A DNA stretch of 64,000 nt, taken from NCBI GenBank assembly GCA_963848135.1, contig CAWKCK010000018.1, forward strand, positions 200,938-264,937, read 5' to 3'. Source of the DNA: an uncultured delta proteobacterium (GTDB taxonomy: Bacteria > Desulfobacterota > Desulfobacteria > Desulfobacterales > SG8-13). Within the stretch, counting starts at the first letter, position 1, and each line of letters begins with the position of its first letter. This document shows positions 16,001-22,000 of the stretch, in pieces. Made by a program: the position numbers.

Positions 16001-19000
16001 CTCCGGTGTTAGCGCTTCAATCCGGGATAAGTCACCAGAGCCGTCCTCCAACAGCGCCAGGCCATAAAGAATCGAACATTTTCGGAGTACGAGGCGAGCG
16101 GCCGCTTCAATAATTGAAAAGGTGTGCCGGACGGCTTGTCGATGAAATTCCGCCGCGCCATCCGCCTTCCCCAGACCGATCGTCAGCATCTTGCACAAAC
16201 CACTTTCGATGTCTGCCCGAAATTTCGTGTGAGGTTTTACACGGTTGATGACAACGATGTGGTCGGCGGCCAATGCTGCCCTGGAAAAGCAGATCTTCGT
16301 GCCATTGGAAAGCCGATCGACGACCTCCACCGCCATGTCAGGCTCGACCGGGATCCCCAAGGTGCTCTCGCAGATACCCAACTTTTCCAGAACGGCATGT
16401 TGTCCCTTGGCCGTCGCACCACCGTGACTGCCCATTGCCGGAACGATGAATGGCTTTAGTTGTTTTTGACACAAGAAATCGATGCACGCACTGGCGACCG
16501 TACCGATGGCGTTGATGCCGCGGCTTCCAACAGCTACCGCCACCGTTTGTCCGGGTTGATAGACCCCGTTAAGATCCAGACCTTTCAAAGCAGCATGAAC
16601 CGCCCCGGGGACATCGACGATCGCCGCCCGATGCAGTTTCTGCCGGACCAGTGCCATATCGGGAAAGGATTGAGAAGTTCTACTCGTCATGGTCTTTTTC
16701 TGGATTCAGTAAGCACAAGTCAAGCCGGAAGAATGAACGTTGTTTTAGATGATTTTTGTGTGACTGAAAGTGGTTGCCGGATTGGAAAGAATCATGCAGG
16801 AAGAAATTGCCTCCGGGATGTCGGCAGGATGGACCTGGAGCATGGCCTTTCGGAACCGCTACACAATCAGTTCCGAAAGGCGAGCAGAACAGTTTAGGTC
16901 TCTTCGACAGTGATGGCGCCAGGTTCGCAAACTTCAATGCAGCTTTCACAACCGAGGCATTCTTCAGCATTCACCGGACTCGATTTTCCGTCCTGCATTT
17001 CAAACACTTCGACTGGGCAAACATCCACACACTCTTCACAACCTTCACATTTGTCCTCATCAACAATGGGGTTGAAAGCCATAACCGAATTCTCCTTTCT
17101 TGAGATTTTGGAAAAAGGTGATCCACATCACCTGTTGCTTCCAAACATGGAAAAAAGTCTTTATACCAATTAAAAAGGCGAGTCAAGCCTTGTTGTATTT
17201 TTATCGTCGATACAGAAATTCGAATGGATGACCATAAGAATTATCTTTAATTCTTACTGGTTATGAATATAAATTCAAATTTCTATCAAGGCGACAACTG
17301 TGTTTTCTGGTTCTGGACCCAACGTTTGATCTTTCTTTAGAAATTCGGATTGCAGACCGACCGACTTATGAAATAAAGCTCTCGGAGACTTGCCGGCGAT
17401 CAGAAATACCGTCAGTTTTAGCCGCTGTGCGGCATCATCTAATTTGGGAACCATGGGCCAATCCATCCCGGTTGCCGTTTCCAGGGCATGGTTAGCGCCC
17501 GTCACCAACTGGAGCCGATCCAGAAGTTGACGGCGCCAGTTTTTAAAAACTTGCGGATTGTTGCCAACCACTGGAATGTCTTCCATCGTAAACATTTTTA
17601 CAGCATCGGCCATCACGGCAACAGAGTGGTCAACAGCTGGCCGGCTGGTCGTAACAAAAATCCCGGGAAGGTTCGTATCGGCCGACTCGGCAACGCCAGC
17701 CACCAGGAGCCACCAGGCCCGAAGACGCTCTTGGATCATATAGTCCTGCTGCATACCGGAGCCCGTCGCCACAGGACTGGCTGGTTGCGGTGCGGGGGCA
17801 CCGCCGTTCAGTTCGCTGAAAAGCTTTTTCTCGAATTCATCATGCCGCCGCAAGTCTGTCGCCAGGGCTTCGGCCCCCAAGTCCATTTCCTGGGCGATAC
17901 TGAGGAAAACCCTTGCGCTGAAAAACCGCGATACGGACGCCGATTCTCTGGGAATTCTTCCCCTTTTGATGTCGGCCCGAATTTGTGCCACGGACGTCTC
18001 ATCGAAATACGGCACCTTGCCCATGTGTGACCTGAAGTAGTCGAAACCTGTGCGATGCTGGCCACCGTACATGGCAGCCCAATTACGATAGTCCTTCAAC
18101 ACGAGGGCGAGTCGGTCCTCGTCACCTCTTGGTGGAACGATCATTTCAATCAACTCTCCCTGTTCCCATTCACGCATGACGTTAGGGACATCCCGTCGGG
18201 AGGGCTGATATACCACCACGGGGCTAAAACATGTTTGAATCGCCGCCATGCTCGCCACCGGTATGTACGTTTGTGGATAGCAAATGGGTCTCATTCTATC
18301 TGCTCCTGCGCTGGTTCGGGGCGATAACCCCCTTATTAAGCATTATCGTATCCGATAGTATCTGATTGACGGCTACCGATGGGGCCTTTGTGTCCGCTGC
18401 CTGACAGCGAAAAGTAAGGCCCGGCCTGAAAACTCCCGCACCCAGGGATGTCAGGCGTTCCCGAATTTCTGGTCTTGAACACTCACTCCCATACTTCTGA
18501 GCTGCTCACGAAGCCTATCGGCCACGACCCAGTTGTGGTCGGCGCGTGCCTTATCTCTCTCCCGCACCAGCGCTGCGATGGCCGGGTCGTTTTGCTGACC
18601 GACGAAATCAATCACGTTCAAAACACCGTCCAAACTTTGAAATGCATCGAGGATTTTTCGGGCGCCTTCCAGGTCTATCCGTTGATTCTTAATCAGCTGG
18701 TTTACTTTTTTGACGACTTTGAAGACAGCTGCCAAAGCGGCTGGAATGTTCATATCGTCATCAAGACCGCTGGTGAATCCGTGTCTGAGGTCATATAGTA
18801 GTTGGTCAAGTTCGGGATATGACGGGCCTGACTTCACGCCGCGCAAATTGCGGATGCAATTGTTCAGGCGGTTCAGTGACCGCTGGGCGTCATCCAATCT
18901 ACCCCGCCTAAAGGCCACCGGCTTGCGGTAGGAAGATGTGATCAGCCAGAACCGGATCACCTTGTCTGGGTAGCCCAAGGCTTGCAGATCGGCCAGGGCC

Positions 19001-22000
19001 AATCCGGGACTCTTGTTATCTACTTTATGACCATCGGCCAATACCAAATCAGAATCGATCCAATATGTTGCCAGCGGCTTTCCAGTGGCGGCTGTGGCAA
19101 TGGCATTGACATTCTCGTGATGGGGAAACATCAACTCGCGGCTGCTGGCGTGGATGTCAAACTGCTCACCGAGGTATTTATTTGAAATGGCCGAGGCCTG
19201 CAGATGCCAGGACGGCCGCACATTGCCCCACGCGGTTTTTATATAAATACCTCTTTTCAGCTCCGACAAGCGGGCGCGCTTGAACAGGGTAAAATCTCTT
19301 GGATTGTCCTTTTCATATTCGTCCAAGTCAACCGTTGCTCCGATACGAATTTTGTTGATGTCAATACCTGAAAGCTGGCCGTATTGGGATAAACGCGATA
19401 TATCGAAATAAAGGGATCGGAGCTTTTCGTAGGCAAAACCTTTCTGTACCAACCGATCGGCCAGTTCAACCATATCATCGAGATGCTCACTGGTTCGCGC
19501 GAGAATTTCGGCCGGTCTAATGCCAAGGGTATCCAGGTCGTGCCTAAACTGCTCGATATGTCGATTTGTATAAACCCCCAGATCCTCGCCAGCGGCTTCG
19601 GAACCTGAAATCGTCTTGTCATCCAGATCGGCAATGTTTATGACGTGATTGAGTGTGTAACCTCGGAAAACCAAATATCTGCAGAGCAAATCTGAAACAA
19701 TGAAGCGCCGCATTTCACCAAGATGGATCGGTGCGTGGGCCGTCGGTCCGCACGTACAGATGGAAACTTTTCCCGGAACCGCCGGTACAAAGGGTTCCTT
19801 CGATCGGCTCATGGTGTTGAACAACTTTAAATCGACCTTTTCCTTAACGACGAACAGCGGTGTGCTCAAATAGCGTTCCCCGCCGTCGGGTAAAATCACC
19901 ACAATCGTACCGGTCTCCATGGCCTGGGCCTCCCGAGCAGCGATCGCCATGGCCGCACCGCTGCTCATACCAACCAGCAGTCCCTCATCCCGGGCCATAC
20001 GTCGGGTCATTTCAAAGGCCTCTTCGTCATCGATGTTGATCTTTTTATCCAGAAGGTTCTTATCAAAAATTTCCGGGCAGTAGGCCTCCTTCATATTTTT
20101 CAGACCTTGGATTTTGTGGCCAAGATAGGGTTCGATACCAATGATCTGAATCGCCGGATCGTATTCTTTCAACTTTCTGGCCAGGCCCATGAGCGTGCCG
20201 GATGTCCCCAGGGTTGCCACAACGGCGGAGAGTTTCCCCCCGGTCTGCTCCCAGATCTCAACGGCTGTGCCGTTGTAGTGCGCTTGCCAGTTGGCTGGAT
20301 TATTGAACTGATCTGTCATGAAATAGGTTTCAGGATTCTCTCGCACCAAACGGTAGACTTCTTCAATGGCCCCGTCCGTGCCAAGGTGCCCGGGGGTCAA
20401 CAGGATTTCAGCCCCACGGGCTTTTAATATTTTCTGGCGTTCCACACTCACCGCCTCAGACATGGCCAGCAGCAACTGGTAACCCTTGACAGAGCAAACC
20501 AGCGCCAAGCCAATCCCGGTATTTCCGGATGTGGCCTCGATAACGATTTTATCGGCAGTCAGTTCGCCAGATCCTTCGCCAGCTTCGATCATTGACAGGG
20601 CCGCCCGGTCTTTTATGGAACCACCGGGATTGAAATACTCCAACTTAGCCAACACCTTCACCCCCGGATTAGGGTTGAGGTGGCGTATTTCCACCACAGG
20701 CGTATTGCCGATTAGATCGAGAATTGATTGTCCCATCTTTACCCACCGTTGATTCAGTGTTTTCTTCTTTTGTGTCTACCAATCAATGCTCGATGGCATG
20801 CTTGCGTGTTCCATTTCGGGATGGAAACGTTATAGATCCATTGTCGCCGACAAACCCAGAGCAGCTAACACGAATTTGAAAAGCCGAAAGGCTCGAAACA
20901 TTCGTTTAGGACTTTAGCACCTGCCGAAGGCCGATCAGGATTTCGTTCTGAACCGTACGGGGGTCGTGTGACGCATCGACGACATAAAAACGCTCCGGTT
21001 CGCTGCGAGCGATGGTCTGGTAGCCGGCGCGGATCTTTTCATGAAAAGTCAGTGCTTCCTCTTCAAACCGGCTTTCATCTCCGGTCCGCCCACCGTTTTT
21101 GATTTGAGCCCAGGCTCTTGCCAGCCCGATTTCCGGTGACACATCCAGCAGGATGGTTAAATCCGGCTTCAAGGCACCAAGGATTGCCTGGTGAATCCGC
21201 CGGATCAACTCTAAATCCAATCCTCGTGCGTATCCTTGATAGACGATCGTCGCATCGTAGAAGCGGTCACACAGAACCGTACGCCCGGCCGTCAGGGCAG
21301 GCATGATGATTTTATGCACATGTTCGACCCGATCAGCCTCATATAGAAAAAGCTCGGCCAGGGGATCGATCTGTCGGTTGGCCGGATTCAAAAGGATCGC
21401 ACGAATATTCTCTCCGATGCCGGTCCCACCCGGTTCGCGTGTGACCAGGACATTGTGACCCTGGTTTTCCAGAAAACGGCGGATGTTGCCCAATTGGGTG
21501 GATTTTCCCGAGCCTTCAATACCTTCCAGGGTGATAAACATTTTCTAATCCTGTCCCCCAATTTCGCTGCGGCCGCGGTAGAAATGCCGTTCCAGAAGGC
21601 GATGATAGGATGTCCAAGGCTCGTTGGGATTCTCACCGGCCATGAAATCACGAATGCCGTTAACGCGAGCATCGATTTCATCGATATAATTGAGCAGCAC
21701 GGCCTCGATGGTCTTGGGTGGTTCCGGGGATCCGAATTCACGGGCGCCGTGATGACTGATGATCATATGCTTCAGCAATACAGCCTGTAGTGGTGGAAAA
21801 TCCTCTAGCATGCGCAGCTTTTCCTCGAGAATCTGGACGGCAATAACAATGTGGCTGACCAGCCGGCCTTCATCAGAATAATCGATCTTCGAATCGTATT
21901 CAAACTCGCGAATTTTTCCGATATCGTGCAGAATTGCCCCGGCGATCAACATATCTCTATCGATACCGCTGTAATGGGGAATGATCCGGTCCGCCAGAAC

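Follow-up and report, generated by a model that had tools for sequence, protein, structure and literature searches.

HisZ, which has no anticodon-binding domain, acts on HisG, and a HisRS-like domain acts likewise in GCN2. In the part of PMC9437257 that deals with it, HisZ is a synthetase paralogue without adenylation activity that is attached to the biosynthetic enzyme of its own amino acid and mediates allosteric inhibition by histidine. The SepRS/SepCysS pathway of tRNA-dependent cysteine synthesis brings a PLP enzyme and tRNA(Cys) together in the making of cysteine (PMC5424206, portion on this pathway). A second CysRS-type gene, CysRS*, has been described from Desulfobacterales; in the passage that defines it, CysRS* has no domain for binding the anticodon, its gene follows selC*/selB*, and it is described as charging an opal-anticodon tRNA(Cys) (Mukai et al., NAR 2017, PMC5389517).

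The window analysed here, a stretch of 64,000 nucleotides from an uncultured member of the same order, contains a gene (P0001, 761 aa; 18451..20736, minus strand) whose ORF and translation combine a cysteine synthase domain with a CysRS-like body. Pfam matches were to PALP (residues 6-284, E = 5.6e-71), tRNA-synt_1e (316-618, 9.4e-69), DALR_2 (PF09190, 654-707, 9.9e-10) and CysS_C (PF23493, 718-757, 5.8e-08). The genome-wide survey's note had reported an intact cysteine synthase fused to a CysRS body, with relatives named only 'cysteine--tRNA ligase'; ORF, translation and Pfam bear out the first point and the public database records the second. The gene is not CysRS* as defined in the passage of PMC5389517, as it encodes an anticodon-binding domain and its neighbours are tmk and a gene for a 339-aa protein. 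Full-length relatives occur in about 337 of the 401 genomes of Desulfobacterales (a hand count at best E ≤ 1e-220), and an orthologue from a cultured organism has the accession QTA91110.1. The fusion was proposed to be specific to this order, which does not hold: it is carried by 119 of 301 genomes in a sample of the phylum, many with near-canonical HLGN and KMSRS motifs, and only a remodelled HxGE/K-V-D form and adjacency to the 339-aa gene are marks of the order.

The CysK/CysM-type PLP domain (residues 1-295; 19852..20736, minus strand) scores above the cut-off of the subfamily profile TIGR01136 (cysKM, 355.7 bits against 344.15), and stays below those of the equivalogs cysK (317.5 against 350.95) and cysM (343.7 against 394.2), the latter being its nearest profile. 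GGSIKDR, TSGNTG and GTSGT can be read directly from the translation. In 51 aligned fusions K42, S70-G74, Q143, G177/T178/G180/T181 and S258 are invariant; we take K42 to be the PLP lysine, S70-G74 the substrate loop, G177/T178/G180/T181 the phosphate loop rich in glycine, and S258 the serine near PLP N1. From these residues the domain looks fully competent. CysM-type enzymes have basic residues that bind an anionic substrate at the place of the CysK loop before HKIQG. The fusion resembles CysM and O-phosphoserine sulfhydrylase-type synthases in that this loop of about ten residues is missing, that K213 never varies and K216 hardly does, and that several carriers have no cysE. Unlike CysM itself, it falls under the cysM cut-off, and O-acetylserine, O-phosphoserine and serine are all candidate substrates.

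This genome also has a cysE-cysK pair. Of the 121 Desulfobacterales genomes with a completeness of 95% or above, 20 have no TIGR01136 match (E ≤ 1e-60) apart from the fusion. Five of these were checked, and in all five it is the only CysK-like PALP gene; cysE was not found at E ≤ 1e-20 in four, and neither SepRS nor SepCysS scored above cut-off in any. As these genomes have no other CysK-type gene and no SepRS/SepCysS, their gene content implies that the fusion must make cysteine there.

The CysRS-like body (residues 301-761; 18451..19836, minus strand) comprises, in order, a Rossmann fold with replaced ATP motifs, the CP domain, the helical DALR domain and the anticodon-binding CysS_C. It aligns with E. 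coli CysRS (1LI5) at E = 4.4e-72 and shares domain order, fold family and anticodon-domain residues with the canonical bacterial enzyme (1LI5/1U0B), from which it differs in its N-terminal PLP enzyme, in the replacement of HIGH, GGG-D and KMSKS, and in having neither C209 nor E238. Alignment with 1LI5 and 14 canonical CysRS confirmed the survey's reading that KMSKS is lost, HIGH has become HxGE and WHIEC is altered. In P0001 HIGH is replaced by HLGE, KMSKS by KVDNKS, HGGGxD by HASSRE, WHIEC by WHLQA and PHHENE by PHHENV; C28, G29, W205, H206, H234 and the NxTDxDDK motif are kept. Ten residues had been described as missing after NITD. In fact it is the canonical CysRS of this same genome that is unusual and has them as an insertion (NITDVGHLTGDRDMGEDK), since RNFTDxDDK stands in the 13 remaining canonical sequences that could be used, as it does in the fusion.

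We take C28, C209, H234 and E238 of E. coli CysRS to be its four zinc ligands. P0001 keeps the first and third (C329 and H539) and has alanine (A514) and valine (V543) in place of the others. Two cysteines are mentioned for the CysRS zinc site in the part of PMC10655014 that concerns it. Throughout the genus only C28 and H234 are kept (C209 to A, E238 to V/I), and among 33 fusions of the order C209 is kept in 24 and E238 in 13. By comparison, the substituted residues are uniform: HIGH reads H-x-G-[EQD] and position 208 is Q in 33/33, D229 is E in 32/33, the GGG position reads T/A-S-S, and the KMSKS position is K-[VM]-D-x-x in most. The conservation of these substitutions (E, Q, E, D) within the order would fit a new ligand site and a dead site equally well.

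It was suggested that the gene is not a housekeeping CysRS, and this stands: P0001 scores 313.6 on TIGR00435, below the cysS equivalog cut-off of 340, and has neither HIGH nor KMSKS, although the DALR and CysS_C domains of a cysteine--tRNA ligase are present. It might nevertheless be an active second CysRS, the fusion channelling fresh cysteine straight into tRNA charging. Every CysRS domain is present, C28, G29, W205, H206 and H234 remain, and K..KS persists in the loop. Fusions L055, L062 and L064, from outside the order, have HLGN and KKMSRS and so resemble this genome's presumably active canonical CysRS; because their motifs are near-canonical, the ancestral fusion was possibly active. All the same, we consider activity in Desulfobacterales distinctly unlikely, as all ATP-contacting motifs are altered, with acidic residues at position 4 of HIGH and position 3 of KMSKS, the zinc ligands C209 and E238 are unconserved and the cysS cut-off is not reached. 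In addition, a canonical CysRS is retained almost everywhere, a point left uncounted by the survey. This genome has two strong PF01406 genes only, the second being a canonical CysRS (G000:C3:814327-815268, PF01406 1.3e-96, 470-aa frame) with HIGN and KMAKS, and 331 of 359 Desulfobacterales genomes have at least two PF01406 genes at E ≤ 1e-40. The single genome with the fusion type alone (G294, 96% complete) has no canonical CysRS at E ≤ 1e-15, which favours activity, but its sister genome has one.

In a quick tree the CysRS bodies of the fusions formed a clade apart from canonical CysRS (SH-aLRT 100). Within it the clade of the order sits on a stem of 0.42 changes per site, with little change afterwards. 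Outside the order the motifs were lost independently (L057, L063, L066, L072-L074), other lineages having HLGN and KMSRS. Both histidines of HIGH occur together in none of the 53 fusions compared, and the CysRS domain is present in all 53, motif loss notwithstanding.

Mean pairwise identity per domain shows where the body is constrained. In the fusions of the order the CP domain (0.83) is above CysK (0.79) and Rossmann-C (0.66), whereas in canonical CysRS Rossmann-C is the top domain (0.73). The CP domain also differs from that of CysRS in a family-specific insert (residues 468-501), with a four-residue insertion and family-specific residues. The anticodon domain, present in every fusion compared, has an identity of 0.41-0.47 against 0.41 in canonical CysRS, and R727, A730, R731, D740 and R743 are common to both. 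Constraint is thus shifted from the catalytic half of the CysRS body to its acceptor-stem (CP) domain, and the values for the CP and anticodon domains show the tRNA-binding parts to be under constraint, in line with the survey's remark that the anticodon-binding domain is kept. Repeated loss of the ATP motifs in separate lineages could mean that the body is a structural relic, a ligand-free scaffold or a solubility or oligomerisation domain beside a cysteine synthase that alone matters. This is very doubtful, given a full-length body in 53/53 fusions across the phylum, a CP domain more alike than the enzyme domain and anticodon-domain residues common to true CysRS.

Our preferred reading, to which we give a probability of only about 0.4, is that P0001 serves as a housekeeping cysteine synthase and that its sensor module, similar to HisZ and GCN2, binds tRNA(Cys) without being catalytic. 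The CysM-like PLP enzyme would make cysteine from sulfide by beta-replacement. The C-terminal CysRS-derived module would have lost ATP activation of cysteine, as its motifs suggest, and is predicted from its retained domains to hold tRNA(Cys) still; we infer that it would adjust how fast cysteine is made to the state of tRNA(Cys), and perhaps also to cysteine itself. P0001 is like HisZ (PMC9437257, part on HisZ) in that a synthetase paralogue, its adenylation motifs replaced, is attached to the enzyme that makes its own amino acid. HisZ forms a subunit of its own, whereas the module of P0001 is built-in, belongs to class I and has CP and anticodon domains. Because these domains are kept, the fusion would sense tRNA, either in place of the amino acid or in addition to it. 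Cysteine sensing is doubtful in this genus, since the pocket keeps only C28 and H234. Against the sensor reading, activity is possible in class I synthetases whose motifs are unusual, and P0001 keeps K571 and K575-S576 of the KVDNKS loop.

A further point against it is that it gives no role to the strongly co-occurring 339-aa protein (P0002; 17275..18294, minus strand), whose gene lies 156 nt downstream on the same strand. P0002 has no Pfam, NCBIfam or PDB sequence match. Its family numbers 1078 cluster representatives at E ≤ 0.001. Neither Cys nor His is conserved in it and no fold could be recognised, the core weakly resembling nucleotide-binding Rossmann (HUP-type) folds. The gene is directly 3' of the fusion in 33 loci, with tight linkage in most families, and 67 of 72 phylum genomes that have it also carry the fusion. 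On this evidence the 339-aa protein is a putative co-evolving partner of the fusion.

Such a partner would be accommodated if the fusion carried out tRNA-linked sulfur chemistry without ATP. The remodelled pocket and the CP and anticodon domains would grip tRNA(Cys), or Cys-tRNA(Cys) that the canonical CysRS has charged, by its 3' end, and the PLP domain, possibly together with the 339-aa protein, would make or modify the amino acid on or beside the tRNA, for example as cysteine persulfide; alternatively, the cysteinyl group might be passed to another acceptor. Constraint within the module is strongest in the CP domain, which has the insert at 468-501, the substitutions in the pocket are conserved among Desulfobacterales, little has changed since the 0.42 stem, and the partner accompanies the fusion in 67/72 genomes. 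Cyclodipeptide synthases offer a precedent as synthetase-like users of aminoacyl-tRNAs (PMC2922099, where it treats them). We nevertheless regard such chemistry as unlikely. The PLP domain retains the TSGNTG loop, which binds the carboxylate in enzymes whose substrates are free amino acids, genomes with no other CysK must obtain free cysteine from the fusion, the partner has no conserved Cys/His or recognisable fold, and no conserved neighbours were seen at 20 fusion loci outside the order. CysRS persulfide activity reportedly needs K73, K76, K266 and K269 (PMC10655014, section on these lysines). The fusions have KTI(S/x) and K-V-D-x at these places, with equivalents of K73 and K266 but no conserved ones of K76 and K269, so by this measure the fusion is not a CysRS-type cysteine persulfide synthase. 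It is less probable still that Desulfobacterales have a bacterial, CysK-based counterpart of SepCysS, in which an acidic pocket and the constrained CP and anticodon domains would hold the 3' end of tRNA(Cys) beside the CysM-like PLP site and, with the 339-aa protein, cysteine or persulfide would be made on or handed to tRNA(Cys) independently of the ATP motifs. What the fusion has in common with SepRS/SepCysS, as outlined in that portion of PMC5424206, is a link between a cysteine-forming PLP enzyme and, putatively, tRNA(Cys), but its PLP fold and its tRNA-binding protein are different ones.

Past the 339-aa gene, after 192 nt, lies a gene for a 62-aa 2x[4Fe-4S] ferredoxin (16894..17082, minus strand; Fer4_7 and other Pfam matches). 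The survey's conserved operon is no more than putative for the 339-aa gene, tightly linked in most families, and is not supported for the ferredoxin. In 34 of 40 Desulfobacterales loci the latter comes after the 339-aa gene, but always behind a spacer of 132-430 nt, never below 132 nt in 34/34, and RNA contigs from two runs cover it alone. It is probably a syntenic neighbour with its own transcript. A LarA-like nickel-pincer-cofactor isomerase (group 22; 15416..16690, minus strand; NF052515, 473 bits against a cut-off of 400), next after the ferredoxin in 18/40 loci, is probably also outside the system. A further proposal is an MshC-like ligase joining cysteine to a small-molecule amine to give a low-molecular-weight thiol, with ferredoxin and 339-aa protein as further pathway enzymes. 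MshC is a CysRS paralogue (PMC2922099, in its part on MshC) and P0001 matches TIGR03447 partially (8.1e-49). The proposal is hardly tenable: MshC depends on activation by ATP, for which P0001 has lost the motifs, its score of 166.5 falls far short of the TIGR03447 cut-off (485.1), it still has the domain that binds the anticodon, and no conserved biosynthetic neighbours are seen at the fusion loci.

What is new here is a variant CysRS body, its ATP motifs replaced and its putative tRNA-holding parts kept, fused to a cysteine synthase. If the sensor reading is true, these sulfate-reducing bacteria would have an unstudied way to tie cysteine synthesis to tRNA.

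The 761-aa fusion protein (window 18451-20736, minus strand) joins a CysK/CysM-type PLP domain to a CysRS-like body, with Pfam domains PALP (residues 6-284), tRNA-synt_1e (316-618), DALR_2 (654-707) and CysS_C (718-757). It passed the cysKM subfamily cut-off (355.7 vs 344.15) and did not reach that of the cysS equivalog (313.6 vs 340). Its scores were also under the cut-offs of cysK, cysM and MshC, and a role as a MshC-like ligase is very improbable. Exact-sequence look-up showed that the only public name of the fusion proteins is 'cysteine--tRNA ligase'; Desulfonema magnum, Desulfonema limicola and Dissulfurimicrobium hydrothermale are among the carriers so recorded. 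Entries from cultured carriers include QTA91110.1 and QTA79854.1. This label is very likely wrong for the main activity. Among the titles and abstracts listed by the literature searches, none dealt with a fusion of cysteine synthase and CysRS. The simplest account, to which we give a probability of about 0.4, would be a housekeeping cysteine synthase carrying a non-activating, tRNA(Cys)-binding sensor module.

The PLP domain is CysM-like, lacking the CysK loop of about ten residues before HKIQG. The stretch QGLKNMKE is kept, with Q210-N214 and E217 invariant and K216 present in at least 90% of sequences. In CysM-type enzymes the corresponding basic residues bind anionic substrates, and in the fusion they would fit O-phosphoserine as substrate.

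The fusion was the sole TIGR01136 match (E ≤ 1e-60) in 20 of 121 genomes at least 95% complete, a status confirmed by frames of 759-1004 aa in the genomes listed and by a separate PALP search in three further genomes. Five sole-fusion genomes were checked. In four of them, two of which are single-contig, there was no cysE at E ≤ 1e-20, and the fifth had a weak partial match; none of the five had SepRS/SepCysS above cut-off, and their other PALP genes scored far lower against CysK models. Since there is no other CysK-type gene, cysE is mostly absent and SepRS/SepCysS was not found, the fusion appears, from gene content, to be the only cysteine synthase of some carriers and to be CysE-independent. 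In the genome of the window, a cysE-like gene on contig C1 lies directly upstream of a canonical cysK, and there is also a third CysK-like gene.

Canonical CysRS is not replaced by the fusion. Retention of the canonical enzyme in carriers, which the genome-wide survey's note had left uncounted, was assessed from PF01406 matches (E ≤ 1e-40, hand count) in 359 genomes of the Desulfobacterales at least 95% complete: at least two were present in 331, one in 26 and none in two. In 24 of the 26 the only match was of canonical strength (16 at about 1e-139 to 1e-143 and eight at about 1e-93 to 1e-97), and a follow-up of three of these (G030, G123 and G473) revealed a second match that is weaker or fragmented. 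The canonical-type gene is split in G255, also a one-match genome. The fusion type stood alone only in G294 (96% complete, 20 contigs; G294:C7:362239-363123), where no canonical CysRS was found at E ≤ 1e-15, because the gene was truly lost or fell into an assembly gap. Both genes are present in the sister genome of G294, G540. By PF01406 E value, the canonical CysRS of the order fall into two coexisting classes, at about 1e-140 and about 1e-95.

Motifs of the CysRS-like body were compared by alignment to E. coli CysRS, whose numbering is used here, and in a MAFFT alignment that set 53 fusions beside 14 usable canonical CysRS. The fusion in the window reads HLGEMRR for HIGHARS, WHLQA for WHIEC, HASSRE for HGGGxD, PHHENV for PHHENE and KVDNKS for KMSKS; thus HIGH residue 4, E208, C209, the GGG-D stretch, E238 and the KMSKS centre are changed. 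C209 and E238 are zinc ligands of canonical CysRS. Among the 33 fusions of the order, HIGH position 4 is E, Q or D and position 208 is Q in all 33, D229 has become E in 32 and the KMSKS serine has become D in 28. C28 and H234 are kept in every one, C209 in 24 and E238 in 13. These changes are not random, and the replacement of HIGH and KMSKS described in the genome-wide survey's note is borne out. The ten residues it had found missing after NITD are instead an insertion in the genome's own canonical CysRS; RNFTDxDDK is the reading of the remaining 13 canonical sequences and of the fusion alike. The enzyme with the insertion (L001; 464 aa, G000:C3:814327-815268), the sole canonical CysRS of the genome, is of an unusual type with HIGN, KMAKS and NITDVGHLTGDRDMGEDK. 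It also reads HCGGTD and VHHTNE, besides the ten-residue insert after NITD.

Outside the order the aligned motifs grade from near-canonical to wholly lost. Three loci (L055, L062 and L064) encode near-canonical fusions with HLGN, WHIEC, HTSGxD, PHHENE and KKMSRS, and all motifs are gone in L063, L066 and L072-L074. That the fusion acts as an active second CysRS is quite unlikely, and would be likelier for these near-canonical members than within the order.

Constraint was measured as mean pairwise identity by domain in fusions of the order, fusions of the phylum (Desulfobacterota) and canonical CysRS, respectively. Values were 0.69, 0.42 and 0.61 for Rossmann-N, 0.83, 0.63 and 0.63 for the CP domain, 0.66, 0.50 and 0.73 for Rossmann-C, 0.55, 0.33 and 0.37 for the helical domain and 0.47, 0.40 and 0.41 for the anticodon domain; the CysK domain gave 0.79 in the order and 0.65 in the phylum. 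In the fusions the CP domain has therefore taken over the constraint that canonical CysRS places on the catalytic Rossmann-C half; the CP domain, according to PMC5389517, reads the first acceptor-stem pair. Specific to the family, in the CP domain of the fusions, are an insert of four residues and some twelve conserved residues at 468-501 (fusion numbering). An anticodon domain is present in every fusion compared, and its conserved residues (R727, A730, R731, D740 and R743) are those of canonical CysRS. We infer that the CysRS-like body has probably retained tRNA(Cys) binding and lost ATP-dependent activation. That the body is a structural relic is a little more doubtful than an active second CysRS.

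A second tRNA(Cys) as dedicated partner of the fusion was considered and rejected, as most genomes of the order have one match: in a 61-genome sample, 54 genomes gave a match at E ≤ 0.001, 48 of them a single one. A second copy does not track the fusion. The genome of the window has two tRNA-Cys(GCA) isodecoders, C4:277396-277470 and C5:310020-310094 (L087:1501-1575), both outside the window. They are identical at 63 of 75 bases and differ in all five anticodon-stem pairs. At position 33, almost always U, the C5 copy has C (loop UCGCAAA); the second copies of genomes G211 and G105 read UUGCAAC.

Sampled genomes all lay within the phylum. A full-length fusion match (best E ≤ 1e-220, hand count) was found in about 337 of 401 genomes of the order; of the others, seven had a partial match, 54 only CysK- or CysRS-level matches and three none. 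The fusion had been proposed to be specific to Desulfobacterales. It is not, because 119 of 301 genomes across the phylum (completeness at least 85%, E ≤ 1e-130), from many families, have a match at 45-66% identity, two of the 119 spanning the CysK part only and two being partial. Frames of 367 and 414 aa in G606:C96:7244-8287 and G805:C15:207737-208753 match only fusion residues 4-344 (65-66% identity); they are broken genes or, within the fusion lineage, unfused forms with CysK only. In a quick maximum-likelihood tree with an arbitrary root, canonical CysRS all fell on one side (SH-aLRT 100) and the fusions of the order formed one clade (SH-aLRT 100), whose stem measures 0.42 changes per site and whose internal branches are short.

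In the window, a yhaM-like gene (21545-22510), tmk (20906-21541), the fusion gene, a 339-aa gene (17275-18294), a gene for a 62-aa 2x[4Fe-4S] ferredoxin (16894-17082) and one for a LarA-like nickel-pincer-cofactor isomerase (group 22, 473 bits; 15416-16690) are all on the minus strand. The isomerase gene follows the ferredoxin gene here and in 17 other loci from several families; no link between it and the fusion was evident. A 373-aa Pom family protein (Protochlamydia outer membrane protein, 1.9e-57) is encoded on the plus strand at 14057-15178, amid housekeeping genes. surE is split into two overlapping minus-strand ORFs within 22581-23347 (22856-23347, Pfam SurE 1-133; 22581-22994, SurE 133-185). 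In related loci it is a single gene of about 255 aa, and the split stems from a frameshift or from an error in assembly. An Rfam search of 15000-23000 gave no T-box or riboswitch and one chance-level snoRNA match (E 0.87), and a promoter and terminator scan gave counts below the shuffled expectation.

In 34 of the 40 loci examined in the order, the ferredoxin gene comes after the 339-aa gene, with 132-430 nt between them every time. This adjacency weighs little because synteny across the order extends to the surrounding housekeeping block (surE, lptD, a nusG-like gene, RNase J and an acyltransferase). Contigs from two metatranscriptome runs match the ferredoxin gene alone (16878-17137 with one differing letter, 16840-17050 with none), weakly suggesting that it is expressed as a transcript of its own; uncovered neighbouring genes carry no evidential weight in this comparison.

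We regard the 339-aa gene as a functional partner for the fusion. The 40 loci were chosen by the 339-aa gene (19) or the fusion (20), with the window itself as the last. In 33 of them the 339-aa gene comes immediately downstream of the fusion in the same orientation; in three (L024, L026 and L027) it lies away from the fusion, and in four the contig ends too near for its position to be told. Spacers range from -4 nt (an ATGA overlap in four loci) to 555 nt and are at most 50 nt in 17 of the 33; they are 138-454 nt in the genus of the window and 156 nt in the window. In a subgroup of this genus (L026/L124 on contig C22 of G832, and L027/L125 in G833) the fusion is kept about 74 kb off or on another contig, and the 339-aa gene has stayed with the ferredoxin and isomerase genes as a moved block. 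Outside the order, 20 fusion loci from 20 families had no common neighbour, and the 339-aa gene adjoins the fusion only in L062, upstream. In the 301-genome phylum sample the fusion was present in 67 of 72 genomes with a 339-aa relative, 52 genomes had the fusion only and five had weak matches only (Fisher's p 7e-28, an overstatement because the genomes are related).

A word-based search gave 17 relatives of the 339-aa protein, and a profile search 1078 cluster representatives (E ≤ 0.001). The family had no Pfam, NCBIfam or PDB sequence match, with no Pfam family in more than three of 123 members and no match at E ≤ 10 in a PDB profile search, and has no conserved Cys or His. Two structure models (pLDDT 76 and 86) gave no convincing fold match with Foldseek against PDB (best E 0.17 and 1.1). 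VIA-align wide reached a best Z of 5.3, on a helical insert only, and 4.2 on the Rossmann-like core (ETF, PanC, NMNAT, ATP sulfurylase and GT-B halves), both under the shared-fold level. The top ESM Atlas match (0.85) is a lead only. Distant homologues from ten loci are without extra domains, next to unrelated housekeeping genes. Complex prediction for fusion residues 1-660 (all but the anticodon domain, 661-761) with the 339-aa protein, run without controls, scored 0.00, a value that speaks neither for nor against a complex.

A fusion that carries out tRNA-linked chemistry is unlikely, if less so than a second CysRS. It stays alive because conservation within the order extends to the replaced pocket residues and a sensor would leave the 339-aa partner without a role. 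The preferred reading remains a cysteine synthase of housekeeping function that does without CysE and incorporates a CysRS-derived module, in which cysteine activation would be gone and tRNA(Cys) binding retained. In a sulfide-rich habitat, where the cysteine-inhibited CysE step is sometimes absent, another brake on cysteine synthesis would be needed, and a module reading tRNA(Cys), and perhaps cysteine too, would be a natural sensor for it. HisZ is the precedent for a synthetase-derived sensor module.

The fusion family occurs in about five-sixths of sampled Desulfobacterales genomes and two-fifths of sampled phylum genomes, under the name 'cysteine--tRNA ligase'. The cysteine pathway of some sulfate reducers is mis-drawn in metabolic reconstructions, because in some carriers the fusion appears to be the sole cysteine synthase, without CysE. 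The family of the 339-aa partner numbers over 1000 cluster representatives, has no fold or domain on record and becomes a defined target, and the series from near-canonical to fully remodelled fusions can be used to study how a synthetase turns into a non-catalytic module. If the module senses tRNA(Cys), it would bring HisZ/GCN2 logic directly into a biosynthetic enzyme, as a class I analogue that reads tRNA, and would be, if true, a new means of matching amino acid supply to translation demand under excess sulfide.
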